Assembly (NCBI GenBank): GCA_973895155.1
Contig: OZ316891.1
Span: 1,479,324-1,543,323, forward strand
Origin: Marsupella aquatica
Lineage: Eukaryota > Plantae > Marchantiophyta
DNA: 64,000 nucleotides
Direction of reading: 5' to 3'
Both the position numbers and the translations under genes were made by a program. Within the stretch, counting starts at the first letter, position 1. Each line of letters opens with the position of its first letter. The notes beneath the pieces are model-generated. The model did not search any database and was not told the origin of the DNA. It worked only from the letters and a program-made list of their open reading frames with translations. Shown here piece after piece: positions 4,882 through 32,288 of this stretch.

Positions 4882-6315
4882 CTACATCTCATTTTGACCA
4901 CCCCCTTTCTTCGTATGTCCCGCAGTCTTCAACAACTGTAACCAACAGCAAAGTCATACCAATGTCAGAGACAACTACCACATTGTCACAAACAAATGTT
5001 CCATTATCAGGCTACCTCAGATGATGAAGTCGACAATTTTACAACCCATGTGAGAACGTTCGTCACAACAACCCATACACTACACGAAAGGGAGCAAAAG
5101 CAACTCAAGATTTCCAAGGTTACCTGCCGGAGCATGGAATTCTCATGAGAAAGAGTATTGACTTTCTCCTCCAATTCTTCGATTCGACGAGTTTGCTCCG
5201 TCGACTTCACTTCAAGGTCACCGAGGTAAGCTTTCTTTCTCTCCCTGGCCTGCTGAGCTGAAACTCGATTCCTCAACAACCTGGTACACAGTGGAACAAG
5301 GCTAGCAATTAGACCCTAAAAGTTTAGAAAGATACTGGACGGAGACCCAGACATCCTCTGGGCCTGACACTTCGGCAAGACATTTTCCAGTAGGAGCGTC
5401 CAGGAGTGCCATTTACTTACCTTTTCAGTCGCTTGTGCTCTTTGTCTGCCGACCCTCCGCCCCTCTTTCTCTTCATCGGAGGTTGGCCCTGACTTTGTGC
5501 TGCTGCACTAGTTGAAGGACCTCCCTTCGCAACTGGCATCTCTGGTACCCTCCGGACGTCTGAATCACTTTCATTTCCTGTAAGGAGTAAGCGGAGTAAG
5601 CGTGTAGTTTAGATAGATATCCCCACCTCCTGAGACAATCCTCGACCCTGCTGCATGAGATAGGCTAGAAACCACCCGCCAAGAACCATCATGTGGACAT
5701 CCACGAAAGAACGTAGATTTACTGGAAGCGAGTGATCTTTCTGGCAGCCTAGCACCTACCATCCTTCTTGGGATCCAACACGGCGGTCGTGGCAGGGGAT
5801 GCAGACGCATTCTCCTGACTAGAGCTCATTTGGGATGAAGTTGTTCCATTAGAGGAAGGCATCGATGAACTGCGGACTCTGGGAGCTTCGACTTCACCAC
5901 CGACCTGGATCTTCCCGTCTATGACAAGCTTCCAGCCCCTGTTGAAGGACCTCTCTTTCAGAAACGGGGTCGCAATGGTGGAGGGTTTGGTATTAGGCCA
6001 AACCGGTACTTTGGGGTTCGCCCTTATTGCTCCTGCACCTGCAACCAGATGTTCGTACACAAGTTCAACACACTAAGCCTAGCCAAGTGCCATTTCCCTA
6101 CAGTCAGCACTAGACACTTTGAACGAATACCTCAAAAGAGGAAGGGCACCACAAGCTTCACCTAGGACAGGTTTTTTGGCAGAATCGGTCGCCTTGCCAT
6201 CGGGAACTTCTCCTTCGCTTTCATCACTGTCCGAAAGGGACGCATCAGAATCGTACTCTAGATCACTCCCATCCACCCACCGCATACCCTCGCCCTGGTC
6301 CTCCACTTCGTTCAT
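4882..6315 (-). CDS. HY5: bZIP transcription factor HY5; exons 6315-6162, 6038-5760, 5577-5421, 5280-5124, 4935-4882
   Basis: COP1-binding VP motif [12 protein letters not shown], basic region DKEHKRLKR|[19 protein letters not shown] and a leucine zipper. All introns are GT-AG with consistent phases; stop TAG at 4882-4884. Confidence 0.93.
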
Positions 6316-9155: not shown

Positions 9156-9970
9156 GTGAAGATGCTTGGACAGCTTCACAACAACAATGGGGAGTGGGTC
9201 AATAAGAATCAGCTCAGCAACCAAATTCGCAGCAGTTGGCAGATTGGAGTGGGCGAATTCACAGCCTTCTATGAGGAACTGACCATCAACGACACTCCAG
9301 AATCTATGATGCATGCTTCATCAGTGCGTTGGCTGGAAGTGGGACTGGCCAGCCAGGAACATGGGGTGGTCCTTCCCGAATAGGATGTGGGCACTTAATT
9401 CGCTGAGCATGGAGGGAGACACAGCCCAATTGAACAGGAGATGGGGACAAAACGGAACCCCCGCAGAGTGGAGACAGACATGTATGGCAGAAAGTCTGGG
9501 GCGGCTGGGTGGTATCAAAGGTAAGGATATTCATATGGAGACTCGTACAGCACGGTTTTTTTACAAACGGACAGGCTCACAGATGGGGAGTGTGTGAGGG
9601 CACTTGCGAGCGATGCAATCTTGAAACTGAAACCACTGACCACCTATTATGTCAATGTAACAAAGTGATTACCCAGTGGATGGAACTGAAGTCACTCCTT
9701 CGCCACACCATTACCCTGAATTTCCTGGGTGACACCTTATATGGATCGATTCAAACTGCACTCAGACTGCATAAGCGAAACCCGGGTCCGATTGTGCTGT
9801 TGATGGAATTATGCAACACCACTTGGAAGGAGCGCAATGCTATGTGTATTCGAGGTTCCTAGGGCGTATGCCTAGCTGGGTGATTCTGAAGACTACTGCT
9901 GATCACATTCCCGATCACATCAAGACTATGCTGAGCCCTAGCTGCACGCAACGGAGAACAAGACAACTAC
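9156..9970 (+). pseudogene. Frameshifted LINE ORF2 C-terminus (zf-RVT zinc-binding domain)
   Basis: KVRIFIWRLVQHG...CERC..ETETTDHLLCQC and WKERN motifs typical of plant L1 ORF2; broken across several frames. Confidence 0.85.
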
Positions 9971-11277
9971 CACTAGAAGAAAACGTCCCCTTTTGAGACC
10001 CTATGCTTTGTGACTTTAGGGAGACTTTCAAAAATACATGACTCCAAGTTTAGGGGAGTCATTGTTGTTACATTTTATCAACTGATTTTTGGGGGATATT
10101 TGTGAAAGTCATTCCTACAACTTCTGATAAAGTAGCAATTGTAACACTAGTAGGGCAGTCATATGTAAGTTGAATAAGCTACTCTCCATTACGGCATTCT
10201 GAAATAGAGTGCAAGAAGGATTACATGCACTCTAGACATCACGGAATGTTCCATTTACAACCCTTGACTTGCAACTTGCGGAGTCGGGAGCACTAGGTGC
10301 ACATAGAAGGAATGGGGGTTTAGGGTTGCAGAACTAGTTAAATGTCTTCATGTCAAGAGCATTGTAGCTAGTTATCCTAGCTAGCCTAATTAAACGTGCA
10401 TGGGAGTACTTGCCTCTATAATAGTAAGTCTTATGCTGCTCAATGGATTCCTTAGAGTTCATGGGCAACTTTGACAAGAATATTGGGGTGATATCATTTT
10501 CAATTCAGGGCTAAAGTAGTGTCTGGCCCCCATTCTTTGTCCACCCTCCCTAAGTGGCATGTGTAAGGGTTAATTTACAGTTGCGTTCTAAGAGGTTACA
10601 GTTGCGTTCATTTAATCTTTGCTCACAAAGTGTCGTGTCCAATTTGCTTTAGGGTACTAACATGTGTATCAATGGCTCATGTCAACGCAAAGTGGTCGAG
10701 GCTCATTGGGTTTGGTTCACTAAGTGTCACTAAGTGTTAAGGTATGCTTTGTGCGTGAGTGTGCCTTTGGACACGAGTTTAGGGTGCGCGGGTTTTGTTT
10801 AGGGTTTAAACACGCCAGCAGAGTGCAAAGTTCAGTTCAATGTGCGTGGGAACTCGGAGGTTTTTGTTTCAGAAAAACTCACTTGTCCATTACGGGGACA
10901 TTCGTCGTGCCTGAAGGTCGTCACATTGTGCGCGGTCTCACAAAGTGGGGAGTGTGCTTCGCGATCGGGGCAGTTCCTTTGCGTAGGGGAGTTTTGCGCT
11001 TGGAGCTTGAAGGTTTACCTTCAAAGCTCTAGAGCATTCAAGCTGAGAGGGCGACCGGCTTGCGGAGTGGAGAGGTGAGCTGCAGTGGACGACGAGCTCT
11101 AGGACTGGGAGGAGCTGTGGGCGGGCAGGAGCTGCAATTTGGGAGCTGCTCTGGCCGCCGGTCTGGCCGAGGAGCTACGAGCGGAGAGCAGCTGGAGTGG
11201 AGCTCGAGCGGAGTGGAGCTGGAGTGGAGTGCTTCTGTCACACTGCTGAGGATTGCTATGTAGCTTCAGTTTGGGCG

Positions 11278-11680
11278 GGGGTGCGAGCAGAGGTGCTGAG
11301 AGCGGCTCAGGTGCCAAAGGAGGTGGTGCGAGCGGAGGTGCGAGCGGAGGTGCTGAGAGCGGCTCAGGTGCCAAAGGAGGTGGTGCGAGCGGAGGTGTGA
11401 GCGGAGGTGCTGAGAGCGGCTCAGGTGCCAAAGGAGGTGCTGAGAGCGGAGGTGCGAGCAGAGGTGCTGAGAGCGGCTCAGGTGCCAAAGGAGGTGGTGC
11501 GAGCGGAGGTGCGAGCGGAGGTGCTGAGAGCGGCTCAGGTGCCAAAGGAGGTGGTGCGAGCAGAGGTGCTGAGAGCGGCTCAGGTGCCAAAGGAGGTGCT
11601 AAGAGCGGAGGTGCGAGCAGAGGTGCGAGCGGATGTGCGAGCGGATGTGCTAAGAGCGGAGGTGGTAAGAGAGGTGCTAT
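11278..11680. repeat. G-rich composite minisatellite (modules GGTGCGAGCGGA, GGTGCTGAGAGC, GGCTCAGGTGCCAAAGGAGGT) inside the CACTA element
   Basis: Directly visible tandem modules, about six higher-order units with lengths in multiples of 3. Explains the Gly-rich and Pro-rich ORFs on both strands. Confidence 0.9.
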
Positions 11681-13382
11681 TGGATCACTGAGAAGGCTGC
11701 AACCTCTCTATCTTATTCCTACTATCTGGCGGTTGCAGTTGGAAGGAGGGTCGAGTGGCGAACATTTTGTCAGTTGAGGACTCAGCTGCGGGTTTGTCAT
11801 TTCCTGGAGCTCAATCGCTTGCTACTAAGACTACTGTTGCTGCAATTGCAAGTTGCTTGATCATGAGCTACCTAGCTCCATTGTGAGTTGCCTCCCTATT
11901 CTCCTTGTTCTCCCTGTCTCCCCCTTGCTTGCAGTTACTATCGCCAGGAAGAATGTGTTTGGCCAAGATGCTAGATTGCAACTTGTCTTCTTGCTTCTAG
12001 CTCGTGTATATGCTGGCATCCGTGGGGGTTCCTCGAGTTTGAGTCTGCAGAGGAAGAGTCTATCATAGTCTAATTAAATGTGGGCCATATTACTCTGGTC
12101 AATGAATGAGTTCCCTGGAAATAGAACCTCTCTGATTATAGAGGTGCGATTTGGTCAGAATGTTTTCCCCTCTCATTGTATCCACTGATGCCAACTCACT
12201 TTCATCACCTCAATTCTGAACAATGAGCGTAGTCTCAGGCTCCATACTGCCTATACTGAATGGTCTAGCTGCGATGTCCACCTCGGCTGAAGTGAGCTCT
12301 GACTTGGAGCCTTAACATTTGTGTTCTGTGGGGCTGATTAGAGTTGGTTCCGTCCAGAAGCTGCTCTACTAAAGTGATAGAGCTCCGGCTTGGAGGTGGA
12401 TCTTCACTTTTTTGTGGGTCTGAGTGACTTCTGTCTAGCTGGGCTTAGCTGAGTCAGTAATACATTCAAAAGAGGTGAGTATCCCTGACCAACATTTATT
12501 TACTCTTGACCACGCCAAACTAATGGCGCTTCAATTTGAACTTTCTAAGTCTGACTGCTGACTCCGCTCCTTAAAACCCACCTTAATTATATTCATGTCT
12601 TTCTTTTGTGCATGCGCATAATGTCTTTCATTCAGTTTAACATTAAATGTGAGACAGGGCTCCATCCAGCTCTTCTAGATGACAAGAAGGCATTGATCAG
12701 TTGCTTTTTGATCTTTCCTCACCAAACAAGAAATCTTTCTTACAAGAAACCTGTCTTACAAGAAATCCAGCCTGGCCGAGAAGCTGCAAGTGGGGAGGAT
12801 GTCTGTAGAAATTTGTAAGGAGTGGTTTGTCTCACAATGCCATTGTTGATGAAACCTTGCTTCTGCTGATGAAACCTTGCTTCTTCTTAATCCAATGCTT
12901 GCTGCCTTGTTACAACGTTTGTCTAGTTGACCACTTCAGTGCCTATTCTTCATTTCCTGTTGTTCCATTTTTGGAAATTTATGCTTAAGGAACCTGCATT
13001 TCCTTCCCTGTCCCCATGCTATCTCCACTGCACCTTCCACTGCTAGCTATGTTGATTCCTTCCACTGCTAGCTCTAGACAATGATGCAGTCCAAATGCTG
13101 ATCAGTCTCACTGGGGGTGCCGGTGCAGACACAAATCGCACTGTGTGATTGTAGTTTTGCTTTGTCGGGACGAATGTGTTTGGCTAAGATGCTAGATTGT
13201 GGCTTATCTTCTTGCTTCCATTCGTGTATATTCAATTAGTAGAAGCTGGGAACGAAGTGAAAATTGAATTTCCTTATATTAAGCATCCTAACCTAGAAAC
13301 TCAATACATAAACTCCTGGAGTCCCTCGGGACATAAAAATGAGCCAAATTGTTTCAAAATTGGGAACCTGCACCCGCACTAC

Positions 13383-13724
13383 TCAAACAAATGTGTTGGG
13401 CTTGGTGGCCTTGTAAGTCGTCTTTAGCTTTCGTGATGGAGGTTGAATCTTGCGGTACGTCAAGGGGAACTTGATCTTTGAATCATGGAATTGCTTGGTA
13501 CTTTCTCGCTTGCACAGAGAGACAGGGACTGTCGTAGTCTTGATGATCTGGATGCAAGGGAACCGAACTCTATGACAAGAAGCCATCTCATCGTACATCT
13601 GCTCTACAACGATGTTCAATGTGGTATCACGATATTTCTTGTACATGTTGGGATAACCTGTACGACTCTGATACCTCACCCAGATATCGAAGTTCTTAAT
13701 TGTGGTGGGCTTCTTTTCGAAGAT
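13383..13724 (-). pseudogene. RPL18A: Captured last exon of 60S ribosomal protein L18a (eL20), with upstream splice acceptor, inside the CACTA element
   Basis: cag|[37 protein letters not shown]...[15 protein letters not shown]. No 5' exons are recognisable nearby, and several normally conserved residues are substituted. Confidence 0.9.
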
Positions 13725-14732
13725 CTGGTAGACACATTATTCAGCATTTGCTAACTTCAAAACTAGAAGGGTAACACATTAAACAACAGATAAACTCACA
13801 ACATCCTCCTTTGGTCCTTCAGAGTCTGTACTTTGATTATGAAGTTTGACTGAGTTTATGTTTACTAAAAGAATGTGACTGTGTAAGAGTTCCGTTTGGC
13901 AGTGGATTGGTTGAAGCACTTCATGCTAGTGTGTTGTCTACAGCTCTTCAACCAGCTTTCGTCTTCCTTGTCTTTCACCACTTACGATGACATCAATTCA
14001 GCTAAGACCATAGAAGGTTCCAAAGCATCTAACTTGTAAAATCGCATTCTGTTACATCAAGGACTAAGGTGTTGGGTGCCAAAGGAGACAGCACAACAAA
14101 CACGCTGAAAAGACTTCAGGACTGGGTTCAACAAGGTAGTGAAGGTGCTTAGAGCCTAGTAAGTATGCATTCTGTATCTTTCTCTGTTGATGTGAGCTTG
14201 TGCATAATGGGAGTTGTAGTTGGCAAGAGTTCCAAATATGAATAGATCCAGAAGTATGTGATCATGTACTTGCTCTATAAAGTTATGAAGATATAAGCAT
14301 TTTCTGTTAGACCAGGCAACTTGGGAGTTGGTAAGTGTCACCTGCATCTGAGGGGCTACACCGGGGGCATCAGTGGAGGTTCACTTGCACAACACGACAA
14401 CCAGTGAATTTTCTCTCTGCTGCAACCTGCAAGGTGAGACTTTCGGTCTTTCTGGATGAAAAAACAGGATTTTAATACGATTGATATACATGTCCGTCGA
14501 GAATATGGGTTTATCACCAAGCTCTTTGTCTTAGGAAACTCATAAACTTAGAATCAAATATGTACTATGCACGTTTCATGCTATGTGTATACTATGACCT
14601 GTAGTTGGAACCAAGACAATGAGTGGGAACTGATTAGTTTAGGTGGTTGCTGTTGGCGAGGCAAGTCAACCTCCTGCTCACCTTGCTCATCAAAGGACGT
14701 GAACAGAGGACATCACAACGAAAGCAACACTT

Positions 14733-15182
14733 ATGGTGAGGACCCGCAACGCTGAACATGTGCGACTTGCACGCAAGGCAGAGATGTTGCGCCTTGAGTA
14801 TGTCAGACTTGGGATCCTTCCAGCCCAGTCTGCATGGTACTTTGAGTACCCTGTTGTTTCCAGGAACAACTACAGCCGGCCTCTACCTGCTTCAGTACCC
14901 TTCCTGACATCCTTGGTATTTGTGTCTCTTGTACATGCCCCGCCACAAATTAGGTGCCAAGGGTGTGTACACAGTTGCCAATATGACTGTCCTGCCTGTA
15001 GGGCTTCTGGCCCAGAATTGGATGACCGTTCTCTTGGATGCCGATTTTTGCACAGAGCACAATGTATCATCTGGAACCACTCGCCATCTTGCAGTGTGCC
15101 TGGTGATGTCACTTGTCTAGCCCTCCCAGACCCCACCACCGGTGACTTTGGTGTCTACACATGTTTGGATCACATGCTCTAG
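14733..15182 (+). CDS. CACTA accessory gene 1: 149-aa Cys/His-rich putative zinc-finger protein of unknown family
   Basis: ATG-initiated intact ORF with CxxC-x3-C-x3-CxxC ... C..HxxxC ... YxCxxH spacing; co-oriented with the other element genes. Confidence 0.55.
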   Translation: MVRTRNAEHVRLARKAEMLRLEYVRLGILPAQSAWYFEYPVVSRNNYSRPLPASVPFLTSLVFVSLVHAPPQIRCQGCVHSCQYDCPACRASGPELDDRSLGCRFLHRAQCIIWNHSPSCSVPGDVTCLALPDPTTGDFGVYTCLDHML

Positions 15183-15799
15183 AGGACCACTTGTCACACC
15201 GCATGCACAGACCAGATACCATTGACCTATAGCTTAACACTCTGACTTCAACACAGAGGATATTTACTTAAAATTTTGATGTATGAGCAATTTTGGGTCC
15301 AGGGTTTAGGGTCAACAGTACATAACTTATATCCTATTATGCCTGCACTAAGCAAAATATCCTAATTTAAGAGGCTAGCAAACTCGCATAAAAGTCTCTA
15401 TTGAAAGACTGCTTTCATGACTGCTTTAACCTGGTGAACATTGCAACGTTCAATGAATTAATGGGCCATGTGATAACCTGTAAAATGTGATTTATGCATC
15501 ACTTATTTGTCTCAGCCACTATCATAGCCTATTTAGGATGTATAAATTTCAACCCTTATGACACTGCTTCATACCAATCCTCTTCGAAGAATGCGCGTTT
15601 TACATGTCACGACTATTGTATGTGATTCAAATGCATGAAATGTTGTTGCAGATCTCCTTTGGTGAATCATAGCCACAATTAAAATTGAGGTGTTGGTGGA
15701 GCAATTGTATTAGGGGATCAGGTTTGTGTGTGGGCTCAACATACCAAAAGTATGTCTGCTCTGCATCCTTGTGTGGCCATTCCAATTCATTGCAGTAGC

Positions 15800-15943
15800 A
15801 AATGCCTTTGTACCTTAAATGCTAAATATATTTTACTTTCTGTGCAGTCTGCTAAATTGTAGAGTCTATCTAAATGCCTTTGTACCTTAAATGCTAAATA
15901 TATATTACTTTCTGTGCAGTCTGCTAAACTGTAGAGTCTATCT
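15800..15943. repeat. 72-bp tandem duplication (2 near-identical copies)
   Basis: AAATGCCTTTGTACC...GTAGAGTCTATCT at 15800-15871 and 15872-15943. Confidence 0.9.
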
Positions 15944-15954
15944 CATGCGCAGGC

Positions 15955-16639
15955 ATGGCATGACCTAAAATTCAAGCCAAAAAGCGTGTGACAGAGGTGA
16001 GAAACACAGGTGTACTTGGGGCAGATGTTACTAATTAACTTCTCTGCAAGTCAGATTTTCCAGAAGGCAGCTCATTGTTGTGCCATTTGTGACGATGGTG
16101 GGGGCCTGGTCATTTGTGAGGGCCCTTGCATGAGACATTTCCACCTCAACCTGGAGTCTGACCTTGCTGCAGAAAACAACTGTCCAGGGGTGGGCCTCCC
16201 GTCAACACACCAGGGAGACTGGATGTGCACTGATTGTTTGGAGAAGCAGGCTAAGTGTGCACAGTGTGGGAAGTTGGGGTCCTATGAGGGCTCTGTTGAT
16301 GCTGCAGCAAATGTTAGGAAATGTCCAGACCGTTTTTGTGTGAGATTTTTCTGTTTTGAGTGTTTGCCTGCTCATGCCACAGCTTGCCCACTTCATAGGT
16401 GCAAGGCATGTGGTGAGCATGATCATGAGTACTGGACTGACATAGTCCACTGTGCTAGGTGTCCCACCATGTGGCACTATCATTGCCTGAAAGATCGTCA
16501 AGCAGAGGGTTATGCTTGTGATAGAGAAATCTATGATCACTCTGCACATGGTGTTGATCGATGGATATTTTATTGTCATCGCCATGCCATTGATCCTACC
16601 TTGCGCACTCCTGTGAGAGATCACATATCTTGGCTGTGA
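15955..16639 (+). CDS. CACTA accessory gene 2: stand-alone EDM2-like atypical PHD-finger cluster (predicted exons 15955-15996, 16055-16639; codon 3 is TGA in this copy)
   Basis: CAICDDGG-LVICEGPCMRHFH, CxxCGKLGS, CPLHRCKAC, CARCPTMWHYHCL and IFYCHRHAIDPTLRTPVRDHI align in order with the PHD region of Arabidopsis EDM2 as recalled (CAICDNGG..CEGSCLRSFH; CPLHKC; CRRCPKSYHRKCL; IYCQEHEIDEELLTPVRDHV). Confidence 0.85.
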
Positions 16640-17230
16640 AGCTGAACATTGTACATGCACAGTGCACCTGATGTGGATGTACTATTTTTTGAGATTGCAG
16701 AGATTCCAATTTTGAAAAGGAGTTGGGTAGGCGAGTTTATATAGGCAGCACTTATCTTGTGCTCTGGCGTCAGTGGCTGGTACATGCCTATAAAAACTTA
16801 TCCTTACAAGCCTTCTTGGAAGTATTTAGGCTGAGTGGTCATTTTCATAAACACTTTCATCAGACTGCTAAATTAAAACAGGACTTCTAAGTTGTAAGCG
16901 TATAAATTATCAGGCATGCGATTAATCAAATTGCCCTATAAGTTTGTCATTGAACGTATCCTCCTTTACAACAAAATATGTATGTGCCATGACAAGTTGG
17001 TTGCACTTCATTTCACCTTCGATATGGATTTTGTAGTATATATTCAAACAATGTCCTGCATCCGTGCAGGTGCCTAGTACGTATTGTTCACATATCCCTT
17101 GTACCTATCAAAATTGGACCTGAGCACCAGTGGGCCAGATCAACTCAAAAAGCAGGAATTTTGTTGTCCTTGTATTGTCAGGTGAACCTATTCTTCCAAA
17201 ATTCACTGTCATCACGTAGGGTGTGTGTAC

Positions 17231-18103
17231 ATGGAGCCTGGGAAACGTAGAAAGTGTGACCACCCAGCAGTGTTTACAGGGGTCAGAGCCATTTTGGTCC
17301 ATGGCCAGCATGGGTTGACCAAAGTGCATTGGCCAACTGTACAGAAACAATTCTCTGAGCTCCATGGCACTGTAGTTCAGGACATCACTCCAGAGACTAC
17401 ACATGTTGTTGCAGGGACATGGCTATCAGTGATAAAGAAGTGGTCATGGTCCTACATGAATTCTGCAATTACTAAGCAAGGCCTAAAAGTAGTTGAGGCC
17501 TCTTGGATCACAGATTCCATAGCACATCAGATTGTACAGGATACTGAGCAATATGAGCTGTGGGAGGATGAAGAAGCTACTGCATCAGCTTGGGCTGAAC
17601 AAGAAGTCTGGGAAGCAAAGGCACGGCTTGCTGATGTCCAATATGGACCTGTACTCAACAAAGGACAGAGCTCTAGAAGGCTGAAGAGTATGTTGGTTGA
17701 GGAGACGAAGCAACCAACCCCCATTCTGAAAGGGCTGAGCATGGTATTTGTGGAGGCGGGAATTGGAGAGGTTAAGTGCAAAGTGTACAAGTCCACGGTG
17801 CTTGACCTAGGTGGGACAGTGGAGGAGAATATAACAGAGGACACCACTCATGTCATTACTAAGTCATATCCCAAAGCCTGCCGCAAGTTTGGGAAAGGAG
17901 ACATTCGCTTTTATGTCATGTCCCATAATATGTTTGTGGTTTCATATGCTTGGCTTGTGGAATCAGTAGCAGCTGGGAAGTGTCAAAACCCAATGGACTA
18001 TGATCTTTTTGAGGCCTGGCCACGGAAGGGTCAGGATCCTTACAGAGAGGACTATGAGACAACAAGTGAGGAATGGGTCATTAGCGATTCTGAATCAGAG
18101 TGA
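17231..18103 (+). CDS. CACTA accessory gene 3: intronless protein with two BRCT domains (DNA polymerase lambda-type BRCT), basic NLS-like N-terminus and acidic tail
   Basis: Two repeats with BRCT hallmarks: FTGV...LHGTVV..ITPETTHVVA...VVEASWITDS and LKGL...LGGTVEENITEDTTHVIT...VVSYAWLVESVAAGK. N-terminal KRRK. Confidence 0.82.
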   Translation: MEPGKRRKCDHPAVFTGVRAILVHGQHGLTKVHWPTVQKQFSELHGTVVQDITPETTHVVAGTWLSVIKKWSWSYMNSAITKQGLKVVEASWITDSIAHQIVQDTEQYELWEDEEATASAWAEQEVWEAKARLADVQYGPVLNKGQSSRRLKSMLVEETKQPTPILKGLSMVFVEAGIGEVKCKVYKSTVLDLGGTVEENITEDTTHVITKSYPKACRKFGKGDIRFYVMSHNMFVVSYAWLVESVAAGKCQNPMDYDLFEAWPRKGQDPYREDYETTSEEWVISDSESE

Positions 18104-18635
18104 GGAGTAGTAGCATCAGTTTGGACACAAGTTTTTTTGTATAAATCAGATCATTGAAATAAATGTGATCTTTGAACTAATGTACCTTGTTATGGTTGGT
18201 GGCAGTTGGGCTTATTTTACTGTTGGCGGATTGTTGTTTCTTGCTGCCTGGGGGTGTCACTGTAAACGTACTGGGTGGGCTCAAATCTCGGCGGTGAGAT
18301 ATCTGATACCGCTCTCACACCTATGCCTATGACTATACATGATTGGACTCTGATATGGTCATGGGTGTACATGTAGAGGCGGTACATTTGAGGACAGCTG
18401 TGGAGGTGGTGACACCCTCAAACATTGAGGAATTTTGTGTCATTCACTTGACAATAGGTACACTACTCGCAAACCTGTTTTTTTCTTTTGGGGTGGTTTA
18501 GGGTTTGTGAGAATTTATTACACGTTATGTTAACTCTTTTGGCACATACAGTCAGGGATGTATGGAACACAAATACCACCATTAGGCATCCCTGTTCACT
18601 GCTGTCCATGACTGCAGAGCTTCCAGCCTGTTACA

Positions 18636-21600
18636 ATGCACCCTGGTCACCACCCTCCCCAAACCCAGCCCAGGGCACAGGCACTGCCTTTGCATCATCC
18701 CACAAGGATATCACGCCATGATAATAAGCTTTGGCAGCGTGAAAGGTTACGAACCAGACTTTCAGGAGCCAGTAGGATGAGATGTCCTTGTGCAATCTGC
18801 CAAGGATCCCGTACCAGGGGTCTGAATGAGGTTTGGCGGCATATCGCGGTTCATGGAAGAGATCCACGACATCGAGTTTGGAATGATCCTGCAGAGGAAG
18901 ATTCTTCCGACGAGGAGTGGAGGTTAGAATTTGATGCTGCCAATGCTGCAAGACGGGCAAGTGAGGTTCTGCCTCGTGCATTTGAAAATGTTGTAGCTGG
19001 TCTCTGTGGGTTGTCAGCTCTCCAACGGGATGGTGCTCAGGCAGCACCACGTGACGAAGGAATTCATGTGGAAGAGATGGTGAGAGACATCTTCCAAGAC
19101 TTGGATGCATTTCATGATGGGCTGGACAATGAAGAGGATACGGCTGCAGATGCAAGTGTGCCCCCTGTCGAAGTGCCTCTTGATGAGTTTGAGATAGGGC
19201 AGGAAACCCCTGGGCATGATGGGATGTTTGGCTCTCCACTACAAATACAGGAAGGCAGGAAGTCTTTGTACCCCGGTAGCAAATGTTCTAAACTGGGATT
19301 TTTCATCATGTTCCTGAACATTTGCGGCAACCACAATGTCCCCAACGTTTTGGTTTCTGAGTTGTTGGCATTCTTGCGAACAACTGTGCTACTAGATGGT
19401 AATATTTTGCCCAAGAACATGTACGAGGCAAAAAGATGCATATCTAATCTTGGATTGAACTATGATTCGATCCATGCCTGTCCTGATGGGCATGTTCTTT
19501 TCAGAAAGGAGTATAAAGAATCGTTGACATGCCCTAAGTGTGGGAAGCACAGGTATCGGAACTCAGGAGTATAAAGAATCGTTGACATGCCCTAAGTGTG
19601 GGAAGCACAGGTATCGGAACTCAGGAAAGTCTATGGTTCCCGCCAAGGTACTTCGTCATTTTCCACTCATTCCCAGACTTCAGCGGATGTTCAGAAGCCG
19701 TGCCATCTCGGAGATGATGACTTGGGCAACTGACAAGAAAAGTGATGATGGGCTACAACGACATGCTGCAGATTCAAGGCAATGGAAACTCATAGATGAG
19801 ATGTATCCCGAATTTGCTGCTGAGCCAAGGAATGTCAGACTTGGGCTGTCATTGGATGGGGTAAACCCATTTGGAGACAAGAACAACAAATTTTCGTGCT
19901 GGCCTGTAACTATTTTGAATTATAACCTTCCTCCTTGGATGACTACAAAGCGATTTTTTGTTTTGATGGTCCTACTGATACCAGGGCCAGACAGTGCTGT
20001 ATCTGCCAACATAGATGTGTTTCTGGCTCCCCTAGTGGAGGAATTGAGAAAGCTTTGGGAGGAAGGAGTTCTCACATATGATGTCCTACAGAGGCTTGGG
20101 AGGTTAAACCCATTCATCCTTAGAGCCATTGTCATTCTGACTATAGCTGACTACCCAGCCCATGGGATGATATCAGACCAAACAACAAAAGGATATTGTG
20201 CTTGTACTATCTGTGGGCGCAATGTCACGAGTGAGTACTGCAGAGCCCTGCAGAAAGTGATATACATGGGCCATCGTCATTTTCTGAAGGCAGATCACCC
20301 TTACAGAGAAAGACAGGCACTGATTGCACACTTTGGCAATGAGATTGAGCAACGTGGACCCCCGGCACGAGTGACCAAAGAGGAGATCAGGCAGTGGGGA
20401 GCACTGAGGGATGACTATATCAAACGAGGGGGCAGGGAAGATGGAGTGAGTGATCCAATAAAGCGATATGGTGTAAAAAGACTGAGCATATTGGACTTGG
20501 AGCTCAAGTACTGGAGGGTAAGCCTCTTGGAGTTGATGCTAATTGGGATACATGTTTTGGTTCAGAGCATGCATTCATTTCGAAGAGAGAGACTAAACTT
20601 GAGGCATTTCCTGACGCTTTTGCATTGCAACGATGCAGGAGTTTGAGCCAAGCAAACATAACATTGATGTTATGCACATTGAAAAGAATATTTGTGAGAG
20701 TCTACTCAGATTCTTGTGTGGAGAGAAAGACACTGGTTCAGTGAAATTGGATCTTGAACAGAGGGGAATGAAACCCCATCTTTGGTTGAGGCCACATGCC
20801 CACAGAGCTGATGTGCTCTTGAAGTACCAAGCACCCTATGTTCTGACAGACACAGAGTGGGAACTATTTGTGCAGAGGTTGAGTTCTTTGAAGGTTCCTT
20901 CAAACTATGGCAGTGCTTTCAAGAAACATATCATGACTAGAAAGCTTGGTAGTATGAAAAGCCATGACTACCATATGTTGATGCAACAGGTGTTGCCTTT
21001 ATGCCTGAGGGGCCTGTTGCAGAAGCCTGTTCGTACTGTGATCATGCGACTCAGTGATGTGTTTCGTCGTATTTGTGTGAAGGTTTGGGATGAAACACAC
21101 TTCCCACAACTGACAGAAGATGTCGCTCAGGTGCTGTGTGACCTGGAGATTTATTTTCCTCCCGCATTTTTTGATGTCATGACCCACCTACTTGTCCATG
21201 TTGTGGAAGAGCTACACCAATTTGGGCCTGTGAGTGCTCGTTGGTTGTACCCTTTGGAACGGTACATGAAGCTACTCAAAGGTCACGTGAGAACATATTA
21301 CAAACCTAAAGCAAGCATGGCTAAAGGTTACATCAAGGATGAGACTCTGGGATTTCTGACCGAATACATAGCACAATATGAGCATGTGAAGACCAGGGTG
21401 TGGAATTCTGATGAGGAGGAAGGGGTGATAGGTGAAGTACTGGAAGGGGCTGCAACCACAAAGAACCTGACCATATCTATGAGAGACTTGGCACATGACT
21501 TTGTATTGCACAACACTGTGGTGATGGAACCCTGGATACAGTGAGTGCATACATGTGCTATAATCCAGTTCATGAGCTTAAATGTTGTGTTCGTGTGGTT

Positions 21601-22312
21601 TTCTCCTTTAGCCTGTTCATGTTTACCCAAGCTAATGCTGTGTGGTTGTTCGTTCAGGGAGTATGAGTCATTGAAGGCAGCCCATCCCACTGCAGGAACA
21701 ACTTTTCCAGGTTTCATGGAGTGGATCAGAGTGGCAATTAGAGAGCATCACGAGACCCACCCAGACATGGATGCAGATGTTTACCTACTGTCTAATGCCC
21801 CTAGCCTGAAAGTGAAGACTTACAAACGGATGAGAGCATATGGGAATCACTTTCGAGTGAAGGATGGTGACAGTGCCTACAGGGTGACGAATGACTGCGG
21901 GCTCATCACTGTATTTGAGCAACAGAGCCACAATCACGACAGGGCCTGGATGGAGATGGGATATGTGGGAGAATTAGTTGACATATGGGCTCTGGACTAT
22001 GGGGCGGTGTCCAGTCCTGTGATTCTTATGAAAGGTTCATGGGTGCGGCAGGATTGGCTTGGTAACAGGGCTACCATGAAGAGAGACAACGACGGTTTCT
22101 TGCTGGCCAATTTCAGAGGGAAATTGCCCGAATGGTCTGAGCCATTTGTGTTTCGTAGTCAGGTGGAGCAAGCTTTCTTCCTGGATGTGGAAGACTCCCC
22201 AGGTTGGCGTGTAGTGTGTCATAAACAGGCCAGGCAACGTCGGATGGAAGGATCAAACCTTGAGTTTCATTTACACTCTCATAGTGCCTTTGATCATCGG
22301 CGTTCAGACTAA
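18636..22312 (+). pseudogene. CACTA TnpD transposase (Transpos_assoc, Transposase_21, DUF4218, DUF4216), frameshifted by a 58-bp duplication; introns about 20518-20638 and 21542-21657
   Basis: CPCAIC..H, IHACPDGH, LRHFPLIPRLQRMF, RNVRLGLSLDGVNPF, DVMHIEKN, MKSHDYH, FFDVMTHLLVH, YPLERYM and EPFV..SQVEQAFF motifs. Confidence 0.95.
19508..19623. repeat. 58-bp perfect tandem duplication inside TnpD
   Basis: GGAGTATAAAGAATC...TATCGGAACTCA at 19508-19565 and 19566-19623; shifts the reading frame. Confidence 0.95.
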
Positions 22313-22579
22313 GTGCCTGTAGTTCATGATAGCGGGGACTTCATTCCTGTGACAAGGGTAGATGCATTTGCTAAAGGAGGCGAATTCAAAGATGCAGATG
22401 CCAACAGTGTGCCTGTGCCATGAGTAATGTGAATTGTTTGCATGGACATTAGTGAGGGGAAGGATGTGTAATAAAGTAATTCTAATGCAACACAGATGTA
22501 TGGATGGATGCCTGGTGATTGTGGTTGCATTGTGTTATACGGGGTGATCATAGATGACATGTTTTTGTGGTCCAGTAGG

Positions 22580-25500
22580 ATGGAACAGAGTGACACAGAG
22601 ATGTGTGAGTATGAAAGGAAAGCTATGGAACACCGAGCATACGTGAAAGCCAAAATCGCAGAACTGGATCTGGAAAAGGATGTGGCTGAATTGTAAGGGA
22701 ACGATTCTCAACTACACCCCTCCGCTGAGTTTGTGTGACATGAATAGTTCAATGTGGCACTGAAATTGTGACTATATTCTCATATTGGAATGTCGTAGAG
22801 CCACAGCATTTTCAAAGAAACAAAAGGAGTACCCAAGAAGGGTGACCAGCACTATCTCTGGGCCTGTGCGTCGGAGTGACAGGTTGAGCAAGAAGGTCGT
22901 ACCTACAATGGCAGAATGTGGAGATGACATTGATGCTGCACAGGTGGGTGCAGACACTAGACAAGAAGATGCAGATGATGAGTATTTTCCAGAGGAAATG
23001 GATGAGGATGGGGGTTATGAAGATGAATACATTGCAGAGCAGCCCCAAAAGAAACAGGTAAGTAGTTTTCCCAACAAGGTTTTGAGTTAAAAACTCTTGT
23101 TTAGAGGTTTCATATGTTCAGTACTACACATATGTACCTTGCTTAGTTCCTGACATTGTAATTGGTGATGTGATGCAGCGTCCTGCCAGTTCTGTTTTGC
23201 CTTCGAAGCCTGTGCATGCACCATACCAGCAGGGGGGGCTGACCTCTGATCAAGGTTGGCAAGGTGGTAGTAGTGGTAGATCCCAGGCTGGTGCCCAATA
23301 CTATGGCAGGGGGCAAGCTCTAGGTTATGCCCGTGGTAGAGGCTGAGCAGGTCCAAACCCACAATCTCGTGGGTATGGACGTCCACCTCAACCATGGGGA
23401 TGTGAGTATATATCTATATGCTAGTTCTTTGTGAAGGCATGGCACTCCTGAATTTCAGACTGCATATCAATTTTTGACATTGTTTGGTATGTATTGGATT
23501 CAGACAACATGAAATTCTGTCCACCTGCCATTGCATGCAGATTCTGCCCAACCTGATTGGGCAAATGCTAGTAATGATCAGTTCCAATGTCCACAAGGAC
23601 AGACATGGGTTGAACCAGGTTGGGAGGATGGTGGTGGGTCGTGGAATGAACAAGGTTGGGAAGGTGGTGAAGGTAATTGGCAGGGATATCAAAATACAAT
23701 ACCTACAAACGCTGGAAGAGGGGCAGGTAATGTCTGATCTTGTCAGCAATGGAAGAACTCATTATATCTGGAGTCCATTCACGTGGGGGGGGACTCTGCA
23801 CATGTATAATGATAGAAAATGTATGTGTGCAGGTTGGACAATCGAACCATCGACTCAAGTATTCACTAATGCCCCTATGCAGATGCAGCACGGAAGGGGG
23901 ACAGGTATGTTGGTGAATGTTCAGTTGTTTTCCTACAGTTTGTACTTAGTTTTCAGTACATATGTTTGCACACACATACCTAGAAAGTGACATCATCCGG
24001 CCCCTGTACTAGGCTGGACAGGTGGTCCAAGGTCGCAACAATTTCAGAGTGCAGTCCTTGCACATGCATCTACAGGCAGAGCTACAGGTATGTATGTTTG
24101 AAGAATTTTTCTTGAAGTGAAGCATTGAATGTTGCCGTCATCCATTCTGCTATATGTAGTTCTCAAGCATGAATGGCATTGTATTTTCCCAGGTGGCTTC
24201 AGAACCCCAGGTAGGGTGAATGAAGGGGTGGCCAATACAACGCCCAGTACTACCGAGAGAAGTGCACGAGGGGAGGTGACAAAGAAAGGGAACGTAAAGT
24301 TGAATGAGAGACAATGGGTGGATGCTGAGTGTCCTCGCAAGAACCGATGGCATGCTGATTTGAAAGCTGAAGTATTGCGTTGGTTAGATGTGAGTGTTAT
24401 TAATTTTAAAAAACAGCATCCAAAAGATTGGAAGATTGTATGTGAAAATGTTGCTGCCAAATGGAATTATGTGGGCAGTGATGATGGCGTGGACATAGGT
24501 TGCCTAGAGAGTACAGCAGGTAAAATCATCAAGCAAGAGAGGTGGAGAATGCATAAGGCTTGGAAGGAAGGTGGGGAGAAGCCAGATATGCCTCCACCAG
24601 CCAGTTGTGATGATAAAGTGTGGGCAAGGTTAGTAGCTTATTTTGTAACAGATGCTTCAAAAAAGAAGAGTTCACAGATGACCGAGGCCAGGTTGAGTGT
24701 TCAGAACCCTAATCTGACAGGAAGGACCGGCACTGCACCGACAGCTAAACGTTTGGTAAGAATGAATGGCCTAGCTAAGTAATTTATGCTACACTATGTA
24801 CTGTTTTTTAGTGTAAACCCATACATGTAAACTTTGTTTTTAAGTGTACGTTCCTTGAATATTGATCGATAACTTGTGTTTGCCATGCATGTGCAGAAAG
24901 CCCAATTGGGGCAAAGCCCTTCAAAAGAAGAGTTGAGGGCTGAAATTGTGAACACCCAGGCTCAAGAGGGTGCATCTGAATCCTCCAAGCATGTAAGTTA
25001 TATGAGTTCTGATTGGTAATTGAATGACCTACGTTGAATTTCAGGTGTACACTGTATATAACATTGATTGTGCATATATTGCCCAACATTTCATATGGAG
25101 TGATTGAACCTATACCCCTGTGTCATGTAGGGAGGTGGATCTTCACTTACAGAGATAAGTGGTCGTTTGAAGGCTGTCGAAACATGTCTTCCAGAGATCA
25201 ATGAACGTTTGAATTCATTGACTGACTTGTTCCATGTGAACTTCAAGACATTAATGGAAGCTGTTGTGTCGGTGAGAGATAAAATTGATTCCAATTCTGC
25301 AGGAGTTCCACCATCACCACTTGAGGTGGCAAAGTCGATGCACTCTTCTGGCATGGCAACGACATGTAGGCTTGAAGGTAAGGCCTTTACAACTGTGTGG
25401 GATATGATTATTAAATGTATAGTTTGAATTGACATTGTTTGTTGAATGTGTTATTTTTAGTAACATATATTGTGGTTGTTGTGTCCATAGAGAATAAGAC

Positions 25501-26287
25501 AGGTGCTACAGAGAAGAAGTATGAGAACCTGGCAAATACTCGCTATAATTTAGAGGCAACAAAGTTGCAGTCTGTACAAGCAACTTGTTTGACAGAGGGC
25601 AGTCAACCATGTTTGGATGAGGATGACATTGGCAAGGGAGTGGATGATATCAATGTTGGGGCAAATGAGGATATCAGCAAGCATGACAATGATACCATTG
25701 AGCCAGATTCATGCTATGTAGATCTTGACTCCATTGCAGAGATAAATGATTTGCAGAATGTATCATTCTCAATGACAGGTGTGCCTCTTGTTGAGATAAA
25801 TCCAACCAAAGAGTTAGTTGGTATGACACTCCCAGGTGATGAACCTGCTACTGTGACAGTCCTAACAGAGGAACCTACTGAGCCTAGCTTCACTACTGTG
25901 AAGAGAGGAAGCATGCGCACACGAAGCAAGTCTGCTGGTGGGAGCAGAGCCATGTCAAAGGTTTCATACAAACCTCCAAGAACGGTGCTGGCAGAAAGAT
26001 CTAAGGTGGAAGTGGGGAAAGCACCTAATGCTGAGGGACAAAGTGGCTTGTTAGCTCTTGATGAGAGTGGAACACGAGTAGGATTTGGCAGAGTGCAGGT
26101 TGGTTCCACAACGTTCCATGGCAAGAGGATTCCCCCAGGTTATTCAGTAGTGTTAGTCACATTACTAGTGAAACCTAAAGCTGTCCTTCCCATTCCAAAC
26201 ACAAATGATGATCCTCCTCAAAAGACACTTGGAGATGCTGCAGGTTCTTTGGTATTATGGCCAAGCAAGTTCATAGAGGATCCATAA
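22580..26287 (+). pseudogene. Multi-exon CACTA TnpA-like gene (GW-rich low-complexity region, Transposase_24-like core, C-terminal Transposase_23/DUF8039-like domain); in-frame TGA at 23344
   Basis: Phase-consistent GT-AG exons include 23179-23401, 23541-23726, 23833-23904, 24013-24087, 24193-24755 and 24898-24992. Motifs WARLVAYF..KKKSSQMTEAR..NLTGRTG, LGQSPS and C-terminal FHGKRIPPGYSVV...LPIP..TLGDAAGSLVLWP. Confidence 0.75.
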
Positions 26288-26784
26288 CAATGTCATGCCA
26301 TTATTTGTTTGTAGTGTGAGTCATGTTATGTAGATTTTAGATGTCAAGAAGCAATACAAGAATCATGTCCTCTTGGAGATTCATAGTATCATGCATGTGC
26401 TTTCAGTTATCTCATCCTGCAGTCATCAATTATGAGTTCCTGTTTTGTCTGAATTACATTGATCACATTGTAAACTATTCCATTGGAATTCAAATGATCT
26501 TCATTTTTTAGCAAGATTGTGATTGTGTTTAATTCTTATGAATGTTTTATGTAGGATCTGCTTATATGATGCTTTGTTTCATGTGGATGTCATTCATGCT
26601 ATGTTCATTTCTTGTATTCAATGTGTTATATTTCTAAAGTTAGAACATCAGGTTTCTATGTATTGTAATGTCGAGTGCTCTCTCTCCTTATGAACTGTCC
26701 CTCTGTGTTCATTAGTCATGGTTATAACTTGCATGTGAACCTTATTAGTTATAAACATGAGTATATAGAGTCCCAAATGGTTCT

Positions 26785-27110
26785 GTTGTGTGACGCGGGC
26801 CAGGGTCTCCATTGGTCTCTCCTGTGACACTAAATGGTCACACGCTAGTCGTTGTTGAATGCGGGTAAGTCATGCATGTGACTTACGATGTGACTCGCTG
26901 AAGTCATATTGCAGTCACGTCGAAACAAGGCTAGACTCCACAATAAAGTCACAGATCAGTCACAAATGGGTATCAAGCAAGTTGCAAAGCCCAGTATCAA
27001 TAGTGACTACCATTTTTTGGTCTCAACTTTTGCAACTCCAAGGGTCACAGCGTGGGTCAAGTCACGTTGAGTCACAATGAAGTCACATGAGCCAAAATGA
27101 GTCACATATT
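26785..27110. repeat. CACTA 3' subterminal repeats (GTCAC/GTGAC core in both orientations), putative TnpA binding sites
   Basis: More than a dozen GTCAC/GTGAC cores within about 330 bp of the 3' TIR; a few related motifs occur just inside the 5' TIR. Confidence 0.75.
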
Positions 27111-29157
27111 GCGGTCTCAGTTCACCTCGGATTCTTCTAGTGTACAAAGGGTGGTTGACGAGCTCCATTTTGTCCTTCGCCCATATATGGGCCAACAGCA
27201 AGATTCCCAACCCTATGATGGGTAATGAAAATAACTAACTGCAAAGGCTTGATGTTGGGGCAGGAAGTCAGAAGGCTCATTCTTCAGAATGGTTGGGACT
27301 CACAGTCCTTCGACTTGCCATGCACAAGTCATGTTTGACACAGAAATTCTAACACAACAGGTATCACAGAGACAGGTTAGTTAGCAATTGGAGCAAGCTA
27401 GGCAGACCACAATTGGTGGGACTATTCTTTGCCCAATTCCGAAAGGTTGAAGCATAGAGTTTTGGTTGGGAAGGCTAGGATGATCTTGTTATGAGGTAAC
27501 TAGTCCTAGACCAGACTAGGAGGTTACCTTTACCATGGTTACCTCAAGACACTATATATACACCCGGTTGATCCCCAACCGAGTGATTCATTCATTCATA
27601 CATTCATTCAATCTCTCTCCCTCTCCAACTATGTATGAATCCTATATCACAACACGTTATCAGCACGACTCTCGGAGGCTGAGCACTTGAATTTTTTTTA
27701 GGGATTCGACAAGTGACAAAAATTAGACACTTGAGGGAATCCCAAGACAAAATCCCTTCAAGGAAACCTTCATTTGAGAGTCCATGTCAACCTGGCGTTG
27801 GAAATTGATGGAGTATCCTCTAAGAGAAACTGACTCCCAAGAAATTAGAAGAAACAAAATCAGAAGGAGAGGCTGATCAGACAAAGAGTTGAACCAATGG
27901 ATTGACCCTTATGGGATCATTAATAAAAGCTTTAGAGGAATTGAGTCTGAAATGCAAGATTGAAAGTACGAAGCATGATTTATGGAAGGAGGAGAAGAAA
28001 CACTGTAGCGCAAAGTCCATAGAGAAACCAGGATAAAGCTTGGGCTGGAGTCAATCAATCCAATCAAAGAGACCTGATTGAATAGAGGCAGAGCACAATC
28101 TACAAAATTTCAATCAAGGTGAGATCTGAAAAGGCACCACACCCTATAGAGAACGAATGTTGCATTAGGGCTCAACAACCGGAGGGTGAAAAGGACTAAA
28201 GGAAATTTGAGGGATGGAAACCTCATGAGAAGACAACATAGTGATCACGGACGCAACCGCGAAGCCATGCAAAAGGGGGAGAATCGATGCACAAGCCCAA
28301 AACGGCAAAATTTGGACCAGGCTTTTCGAGAAACCATCGACAAAACTTGATAAGTGCAAAACCCCCATACTTGCAACTCATTATAAAGAGTATTTTTACT
28401 TACAAAAGAATGAGATCACTTAAAGCATCTTTTTCAAAGCTTTTAAATCACTTTAAGATACATGTGTCATCCTTAACATAAACCTAAATCACAAGCTTAC
28501 ACTCTCATTTTACAAATGTGAATACTGTGCCTTTACACAACACATTGAATACATATAACATGGTTATTACACCATTAAAATCACTTTCCACCATAGGGGG
28601 AGGAAAGCACATTGTACCCACAACTATCTCCCACCTCCAAATGTCATTTTGGTTCATTCACCTTCTAGTACCATTTGAACTTATACACCTTCTGGTATCA
28701 TTTGATCTCATAAGATCCAAACGGACTCAGATAAGGGACTTTCTATGACTAACAAAGGTATGTAGAGGTTAACTCAGTCTTGGGTTGAACTATGGTTAGT
28801 ATGTTAACTAGGGTTAGAGTAAACCCTAGTTGAAGAGTTGGTCCTTATCTCTTTAACTTCTATGTGGTGTGAGAACACACAAGAGAGTTCTCAAGAGAGA
28901 ACACAGTGATATATATAGCATGAGATGAGAGCTTGAAGAGATGGGAGCTATGGTGATGCTTGAGTAGACACATAACTGTTAATAAAGCTTGGTCTTCCCG
29001 TGGACATAGCCAACCTTGAGGCAAACCACGTAACTATTGAACACGTGTATGTTTGGAGTGTATTTCCTGATCTGATTTCTCCCCACAAGGTAAAGGTAGA
29101 GATGATTTGATAATGGGCAAAGCCCCTAATCTCATCTATACATGAGTTAATGAGGAG

Positions 29158-31370: not shown

Positions 31371-31650
31371 ATATAGAGTTAACCAAGAAAATGTCTCTAT
31401 ATGAGTATTCCATCCGATGGCTTATCGGCTACGGCTTAGTTCTAGTTAACCCTTGCATTAGGGGGAGGGTCTTTTGGCCCTACTGTCTTGAACTTCCCGC
31501 GGAGGAACGTGTAAGGAAAAGACAATGTTATGAACTCTCCCAAGACGTGAGTCAAGGGGGAGTTTGTAGAGGTTAACTCAGTCTTGGGTTGAACTATGGT
31601 TAGTATGTTAACTAGGGTTAGAGTAAACCCTAGTTGAAGAGTTGGTCCTT

Positions 31651-32288
31651 GGCCTCATTCACAATTGGGTGTACCTCATAGGAATCACTTTCAGGACTCA
31701 AAAACATGCTTTTTTAGTGAAAAATGACTTTCGTAACATGAAAAAAGCTTCATCATGATTTTATCTCAAGACATTTAAGTCTAATTTTTTCACAAGACTA
31801 TTTTACATGGTGTAACCTACCTCACCATGTAGATACATCAAGTTTTTAACTTTTTTAAGGGATCCTATTATTGATGGCCCTAAATAAGCCAAAATTATTG
31901 ATTATTTTTGTCCTGTACATAAAGGTTTAGTGTGTGTCAATATTTGAGTTTTAAAATATAAGATTATTCTATTAGTATGCATGCCTTGGTAAAATTTCAT
32001 TGTCTAAAATGCAAGTTTTAGAGTCCTTTCGAGTCCTGAAATGATGTGACTTATTGCGTGACAAGTCCTTTTATCGATCTTTGAAGGACATATAAGGAAA
32101 GCTTCAAAGTCTCAAATGCTAGATAGTTTAATTAATGTTACCAACCTACAGGATGTTTATTAAGTATAGTACATCAAATTTTGCATATCATCTCATTACA
32201 CCTTACAAATGATGTCCTAAAGCATAATAAACTATGGTCACTTCTGAGTGTGACGTTCCTTTTGGGTCCTCCAATTGTGAATGAGGCC
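31651..32288. mobile_element. 638-bp AT-rich non-autonomous TIR element (MITE) inserted in the second Copia LTR
   Basis: Perfect 18-bp TIR GGCCTCATTCACAATTGG / CCAATTGTGAATGAGGCC. Comparison with the uninterrupted LTR gives a 4-bp TSD CCTT. Confidence 0.93.

Follow-up and report, generated by a model that had tools for sequence, protein, structure and literature searches.

The window, that is, the whole 64,000-nucleotide stretch of the Marsupella aquatica contig that was analyzed, contains a complete CACTA element of 17.2 kb at 9971–27142. A scan of all CACT[AG] end pairs placed perfect 11-bp terminal inverted repeats (TIRs) at 9971–9981 (+ strand, CACTAGAAGAA) and 27132–27142 (− strand), the latter after a GTCAC-rich subterminal region, and the two copies of a 3-bp target site duplication (TSD), TAC, lie directly outside them at 9968–9970 and 27143–27145. 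Of the 20 top-ranked CACT[AG] end pairings, no other has a matching TSD, and the left end at 9971 is also the exact alignment start of a diverged contig with another flank in run X2. The motif GTCAC/GTGAC occurs 15 times in the last kilobase of the element and three times at its left end, compared with 2.0 per kb window-wide. CACTA membership is indicated by TIRs starting with CACTA, the TAC duplication, and a TnpD gene with a TnpA-like second gene, all of which are present. The element sits in a decayed LINE-like region (9434–9970, with a zf-RVT match upstream). Over 9971–13100, the contig depth is about tenfold below that of the rest of the element, which points to a subfamily-specific 5′ region.

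On the + strand, the element carries, in this order, a GC-rich array, a Cys-rich ORF, a triple-PHD gene, the BRCT gene, TnpD, and a TnpA-like gene. The array, which consists of GC-rich 57-bp tandem units in the 5′ region (11250–11777, + strand), may include a first exon or leader, and a GTGAGT donor is found after it near 11884. A YAG acceptor is found no more than about 11 bases from each of the start codons of the PHD, BRCT, and TnpD genes (15955, 17231, and 18636); one leader exon may splice to alternative acceptors ahead of the element ORFs, a pattern that stands out only weakly from chance. A degenerate captured fragment of ribosomal protein L18a (RPL18a; 13383–13736, − strand; Pfam Ribosomal_L18A, E = 7e-15) is carried as passive cargo. 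The Cys/His-rich ORF of 149 aa (14733–15182, + strand) has no meaningful Pfam match, is covered by contigs of all four runs examined, and is a possible new zinc-binding accessory protein. Next to a 72-bp tandem duplication at 15800–15943 lies the NSD-like triple-PHD gene (15955–16639, + strand), with exons 15955–15996 and 16064–16639 predicted from sequence only. It matches three NSD-type PHD Pfam models at E values of 4e-5 to 3e-3, every one below the cut-off, has a stop at codon 3 in the window copy, and is a candidate chromatin reader. The summed contig depth over 14.3–16.7 kb exceeds that of TnpD in X1 and X2, so the PHD gene may be common to more copies.

The TnpD transposase gene (18636–22312, + strand; predicted exons 18636–20517, 20639–21540, and 21658–22312; 1126 aa) matches Transposase_21 (E = 2e-69) and DUF4218 (E = 9e-28), both above the cut-off, as well as DUF4216 and Transpos_assoc. 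Its sole break is a frameshift from a perfect 58-bp tandem duplication at 19507–19622, which is either a recent mutation or an assembly artefact, and the rest of the gene is open. The TnpA-like multi-exon gene (22908–26287, + strand), whose start was taken from the position of an ATG, matches Transposase_24 at E = 1.6e-4, below the cut-off. Given the duplication that breaks TnpD and the early stop in the PHD gene, this young copy is probably not autonomous. The element ORFs between 17231 and 26287 are CpG-depleted (0.19–0.39) but not CHG-depleted (1.1–1.3). The element resembles maize En/Spm and Arabidopsis EN/SPM in its CACTA TIRs, its 3-bp TSD, and the domain string of TnpD, and the TnpA-like gene follows in tandem as in the split-gene Arabidopsis EN/SPM families (PMC13547354). 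Unlike En/Spm, it has three extra ORFs (Cys-rich, triple PHD, and double BRCT) upstream of TnpD on the same strand.

Beyond the right end of the element, the window contains a Copia-type retrotransposon at 28758–32588, with a partial pol and LTRs, whose 3′ LTR is interrupted by an element of about 640 bp with 18-bp terminal inverted repeats (31651–32288). Two 168-bp direct repeats with 99% identity (27487–27654 and 34693–34860), 7.2 kb apart, enclose the Copia element and are possibly the LTRs of an outer element. The host genes in the window are an ABC transporter at 36173–43621 (− strand), which we take to be ABCB-like, and a bZIP factor at 5007–6072 (− strand), presumably HY5-like. Both these surrounding genes and the Pfam families of the element point to a plant host. 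An open frame of 542 codons at 54634–56262 (− strand) has no Pfam match.

The double-BRCT accessory gene occupies 17231–18103 (+ strand), runs from Met to stop without a break, and encodes 290 aa. As the preliminary description had claimed, the ORF is intact, in the sense of an open frame, intronless (which refers to the coding region and is based on collinearity with homologues), borne by a transposon, and directly upstream of TnpD. The TIRs and TSD that enclose it were not mentioned in that description. The TnpD ATG at 18636 lies 532 bp 3′ of the BRCT ORF end, with an AATAAA at 18158 between them. A YAG acceptor is located 11 nt ahead of the BRCT ATG, and the 5′ UTR may therefore be spliced. 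A fusion of the ORF with either neighbor, the PHD gene or TnpD, was set aside, as each has its own stop and the relatives P0002, P0003, P0004, and P0008 start at the same Met. Three missense changes, at residues 40, 234, and 251, set the window ORF apart from nearly all sister contigs.

The protein begins with an NLS-like KRRK motif (residues 5–8; 17243–17254, + strand) that is present in P0002 and absent from P0003. It is followed by BRCT repeat 1 (residues 12–112; 17264–17566, + strand), in which a Trp-rich alpha2 region is conserved across the family, and BRCT repeat 2 (residues 163–261; 17717–18013, + strand), the more Pol-lambda-like of the two. An acidic, Ser/Thr-rich tail, disordered in the model, closes the protein (18011–18100, + strand), with 10 Asp or Glu among the last 30 residues. 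Pfam BRCT (48.7 bits, with the cut-off at 21.3; E = 9e-13) and BRCT_2 (46.6 bits, above cut-off) each match two stretches of the ORF; BRCT families are the only Pfam matches, and the 8-kDa and PolX catalytic domains are absent. The two repeats align nearly gap-free, with 24 of 99 positions identical. An AlphaFold2 model based on a 22-sequence alignment has a mean pLDDT of 77.6 and contains two BRCT domains at pLDDT of about 70–95, a helix at residues 114–138, and disordered stretches at residues 139–160 and in the tail; an earlier model from three sequences was discarded at pLDDT 34. With a pTM of 0.46, the relative position of the two domains is not fixed, and the two-domain rmsd against solved structures is 8–24 Å, although 22 aligned sequences may be too few to show how the domains pack. 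In superpositions on solved BRCT domains, repeat 2 reaches a Z of up to 15.7 with an rmsd of 1.5 Å over 93 residues. The fold of repeat 1, which appeared solely in two-domain fold alignments, is based on its pLDDT and its near gap-free alignment to repeat 2. The conserved alpha3 Trp of the BRCT fold is retained at W92 in 15 of 16 sequences and at W241 in 12 of 12.

An exhaustive search of 1.84 billion representatives returned 24 clusters, comprising 16 family-like clusters, one ambiguous cluster (P0026), and seven other BRCT proteins. The closest relatives, P0002 and P0003, are 60% and 54% identical to the window protein over the full length, with 125 invariant columns. Nine clusters have two repeats (P0002, P0003, P0006, P0007, P0009, P0013, P0023, P0032, and P0033), are 264–321 aa long, and keep their aligned repeats at 18–60% identity to the window protein; many further family matches are single-repeat fragments. 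No host protein with the same double-BRCT layout was found among the 24 clusters matched. Other searches added little: viral contigs held no relatives of the double-BRCT protein, the ESM Atlas gave generic BRCT clusters only, below 0.9, a word-indexed search with a 20-sequence alignment gave no new family member, and a metagenome scan with A1 gave no locus. The same scan with P0033 found one short locus, L001 (1404 bp, ending 464 bases after the gene and too short to reveal a transposase), with a CpG ratio of 0.28 and an in-frame stop where the 98%-identical P0033 is open, which fits a decaying transposon copy.

Sister copies were assessed in contigs from four of 11 runs, and the run with the best coverage may come from the sample of the window itself. 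For X1 and X2, the depth summed across the BRCT gene is comparable in order of magnitude to that across TnpD. A 96-nt contig identical to the BRCT ORF has a depth of 11,924, compared with 56.8 for the left-junction contig of the same run, a ratio that suggests copies on the order of hundreds, roughly, as depth is not copy number. Synonymous variants account for 15 of 40, whereas 9.8 would be expected from changes of the same types (P = 0.044), and 20 of the 40 fall at third positions; the test used 40 of 73 rows, and the excess is weak because 28 rows belong to a single haplotype and some lie in the same codon. The BRCT gene shows no indel at a share of at least 10% in 931 bases, compared with 75 such rows over 18.1 kb (P of about 0.02 if uniform, with likeness thresholds that differed between the regions, 80 and 85), and two low-depth internal deletions occur in its sister contigs. 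Conservation of the protein at 60% and 54% identity is stronger evidence of constraint than the variant counts. The preliminary description had named two possible failings, that the repeats might not model as BRCT folds and that the gene might not be kept in sister elements; the fold is modelled and the gene is kept. In this multi-copy CACTA family of plants, the double-BRCT gene is a genuine accessory gene and no chance passenger.

With regard to the origin of the repeats, four of the seven non-family BRCT clusters are of the Pol lambda type. Pol lambda is the best PDB match of P0021 (E = 2e-8) and P0018 (E = 0.006), P0024 clusters with a named Pol lambda, and the sole PDB match of P0022, a protein of the alga Mesotaenium, is Pol lambda at a weak E of 0.2. 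Since the P0022 gene model lacks a polymerase domain, its Pol lambda label is itself a deduction. A profile of 28 family repeats gives P0022 64.6 bits, animal Pol lambda types 45–46.5 bits, BRCA1-type first repeats 39.7–44.3 bits, and the others 15–36 bits. Among non-family proteins, P0022 tops every family profile by 11–18 bits, and its own strongest matches outside the family are of the Pol lambda type. Moreover, its score falls within the range of the scores between the repeat 1 and repeat 2 classes, in agreement with a duplication of one such domain. The family alignment matches full Pol lambda with 95.8% probability over residues 22–118, the BRCT only. A search with the P0022 BRCT for full-length Pol lambda found none among 180 candidates, which is weak evidence. 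Plant Pol lambda starts with an NLS and a BRCT domain (PMC4444747), and the NLS-then-BRCT start of the window protein matches this layout and is counted for a Pol lambda origin. The repeat 1 sequences group together (2 changes versus 12.6 when shuffled), and the duplication is therefore old. On these sequence comparisons, the NLS and BRCT start of a host Pol lambda was probably captured, with loss of its introns and of the catalytic portion, and a single duplication probably preceded the radiation of the family.

In human Pol lambda, Arg57 and Leu60 of helix alpha1 provide the docking contact with Ku70/80 (PMC12056208). In our alignment, R57, L60, and F61 of human Pol lambda correspond to K182, V185, and Y186 in repeat 2, whereas the equivalents of Arg57 and Leu60 in repeat 1 are His and Thr. 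Repeat 2 of the window protein and of P0002 thus keeps conservative K/V/Y or K/M/Y residues at the Pol lambda docking positions. Across the family, the R57 equivalent is Lys or Arg in 5 of 11 repeat 2 and 4 of 16 repeat 1 sequences (9 of the 27 repeats with a letter there), and the L60 equivalent varies widely. As both positions are poorly kept, conservation in the family does not center on the Ku-docking face. The conserved residues are the Trp residues of repeat 1 (W64 in 16 of 16 and W73 in 15 of 16) and T117 and E123 of the linker, and an acidic Ser/Thr-rich end is found in 6 of the 11 tails examined. BRCA1, MDC1, and TOPBP1 bind phosphopeptides through a pocket formed by S/T-G after beta1 and a Lys in alpha2. 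This pocket is absent from the family, with S/T-G in 3 of 28 repeats and the Lys in 0 of 28, on columns taken from the BRCA1-like P0017 and a gappy alpha2 alignment.

The functional reading that we favor, tentatively and with less confidence than the origin, is that the accessory gene, derived from a duplicated host Pol lambda BRCT, encodes a noncatalytic adaptor that would dock on end-joining factors at the element's breaks. Arabidopsis Pol lambda BRCT binds LIG4 and XRCC4, and Pol lambda has been implicated in the repair of transposon excision sites; both statements are made in PMC4444747 citing Roy 2013/Huefner 2011. After the probable capture of the NLS and BRCT, loss of introns and the catalytic part, and the single duplication, repeat 2 would contact XRCC4–LIG4 or Ku at breaks of the element itself, and a second partner, perhaps an element protein, would be held by repeat 1 and the acidic tail. 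It is possible, with similar reserve, that repeat 2 still binds the XRCC4–LIG4/Ku surface used by Pol lambda and that repeat 1 and the tail bind this second partner. End processing at excision or insertion would change as a result, either because Pol lambda gap filling is displaced or because ligation is tethered. In human cells, gap filling suffers in Pol lambda BRCT mutants, whereas the direct joining of blunt breaks does not (PMC12056208). Catalytically dead Pol lambda anchored by its BRCT brings gap filling below the knockout level (PMC12056208). Because BRCT mutants spare direct end-joining, one would expect a competitor consisting of BRCT domains alone to change the processing of ends and not to stop nonhomologous end-joining (NHEJ).

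Nearly as likely as the end-joining adaptor, although likewise short of an even chance, is a selected accessory factor whose BRCT domains were repurposed as protein-binding modules with no repair link left, acting either alongside the PHD and Cys-rich proteins in a chromatin or anti-silencing toolkit or with TnpD/TnpA in the transpososome as their cofactor. The presence of PHD-finger and Cys-rich genes in the same element, on which the preliminary description was silent, makes a chromatin role a real rival, the triple-PHD gene lying directly upstream; however, gene adjacency is no proof of a shared pathway. What the family keeps, the repeat 1 Trp cluster and the linker T117/E123 rather than the Ku-docking residues, favors such a role, against which stand the K/V/Y or K/M/Y residues in repeat 2 of the window protein and P0002. 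The CpG observed/expected ratio of the BRCT ORF is 0.19, compared with 0.63–0.84 in four host-gene stretches, and the family is therefore exposed to methylation. A precedent exists in VANC/KIU, anti-silencing genes with captured Ulp1 domains (PMC13317346), whereas our literature search turned up no BRCT-based anti-silencing mechanism.

Returning to the Pol lambda origin, we think it unlikely that the repeats came from another host BRCT of the REV1, PARP, XRCC1, TOPBP1, or BRCA1 type and engage another repair or checkpoint pathway, a reading that overlaps with the others and is not exclusive of them. The rankings by structure speak for it. In the PDB profile search, single BRCT domains of REV1 (36.7 bits), BRCA1 (up to 34 bits), and PARP4 (31.6 bits) outscore human Pol lambda (29.8 bits), and by fold, PARP4 (Z = 15.7, rmsd 1.5, 93 aligned) and XRCC1 (Z = 14.3) precede Pol lambda (Z = 11.4, rmsd 2.1, 94 aligned), which ranks 49th among the 50 fold matches listed. 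In addition, the repeat 2 profile gives the BRCA1-type P0017 49.4 bits, level with the animal Pol lambda types at 47–49 bits. However, multi-BRCT targets win by virtue of two domains, with an rmsd of 8–24 Å when both are aligned, the phosphopeptide residues of BRCA1/TOPBP1 are absent, and P0022 leads in every family profile. The tree of 39 domains, which omitted the near-duplicates P0012, P0014, P0024, P0027–P0031, P0034, and P0035, has 4 well-supported branches of 36. It places P0022 with repeat 1 at 90/66, and a clade of the family plus P0022 is neither supported nor rejected (p-AU 0.094). The outgroup panel was chosen by similarity to the query and is without land-plant Pol lambda, REV1, LIG4, XRCC1, and TOPBP1. 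Thus, the resemblance to Pol lambda asserted in the preliminary description holds in the sequence profiles, above all in the score of P0022, whereas the PDB ranking, the fold ranking, and the tree are not decisive.

It is improbable that the gene is passive cargo in the style of Pack-CACTA elements, a captured host fragment amplified with its element and open because the family is young. The decayed RPL18a fragment in the same element, the many single-repeat family matches, and the in-frame stop of L001 would agree with such cargo, but any gene of a transposon is expected to leave some decayed single copies. Rather than a fragmentary, unconstrained host piece, we found full-length open homologues, a weak synonymous excess, and no common indels; the nine two-repeat clusters, the old duplication, and the lack of a host protein with such a layout argue in the same direction. 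Least supported, and likewise improbable, is a full block of NHEJ at the donor site, by which sister-chromatid repair would restore the element and raise its copy number, as the preliminary description had envisaged. A noncatalytic BRCT pair could compete dominantly, by analogy with dead Pol lambda (PMC12056208), and the family is multi-copy by the rough depth ratio above. Against such a block speaks that blunt breaks are still joined directly in Pol lambda BRCT mutants (PMC12056208), and CACTA elements without such a gene are usually high-copy too (PMC4158355).

Compared with known systems, the protein shares with the N-terminal BRCT of Pol lambda (human 2jw5/9g9l; Arabidopsis) a basic NLS-like start followed by a BRCT without phosphopeptide pocket, the best non-family sequence matches, and K/V/Y at the R57/L60/F61 positions in repeat 2. 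It differs in having two BRCT domains, a helical linker, and an acidic tail but neither an 8-kDa nor a PolX catalytic domain, in its intronless coding region and transposon-borne location, and in docking residues that vary across the family. Like the tandem BRCT scaffolds BRCA1, MDC1, TOPBP1/Rad4, and LIG4, which are the top Foldseek matches, it has two BRCT folds per chain; unlike them, it has no phosphopeptide pocket, its linker is 50 residues long, no solved two-domain geometry fits the model, and its repeats look like a duplication of a single domain. KIU/VANC-Ulp1 of the Vandal MULEs, MURB, and the PMD fusions likewise place a captured host domain beside the transposase in an autonomous element family (PMC13317346 and PMC12973397), although they belong to another superfamily, use another domain, and act as anti-silencing or integration factors. 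Table S6 of PMC12973397 gives a BRCT-type Pfam match for accessory proteins of 1 of 775 active CACTA and 1 of 337 hAT clusters, with no species and no comment in that table, and for transposases of 1 of 1846 MULE clusters. The term "BRCT" is absent from the main text of PMC12973397, PMC13317346, and PMC13547354, and a search of article listings in the open literature returned no description of a BRCT gene in CACTA or other DNA transposons.

The repair of breaks after cut-and-paste excision sets the footprints, the survival of the host, and the copy gain of the element, and the known accessory genes of plant transposons have roles in silencing or integration. In its broadest form, which on the present sequence evidence we hold to be doubtful, our proposal would be that a plant CACTA lineage keeps a duplicated Pol lambda docking module as a gene whose product occupies or bridges Ku and XRCC4–LIG4 at transposition breaks, a transposon-encoded controller of repair choice within one cassette with PHD readers. 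If true, a module of a repair factor would have become a transposon gene, the question would be testable with one small protein, and this protein could be a natural end-joining modulator for plant genome editing. Even without the repair link, the double-BRCT genes are a real, old, and apparently undescribed family of transposon-borne accessory genes.
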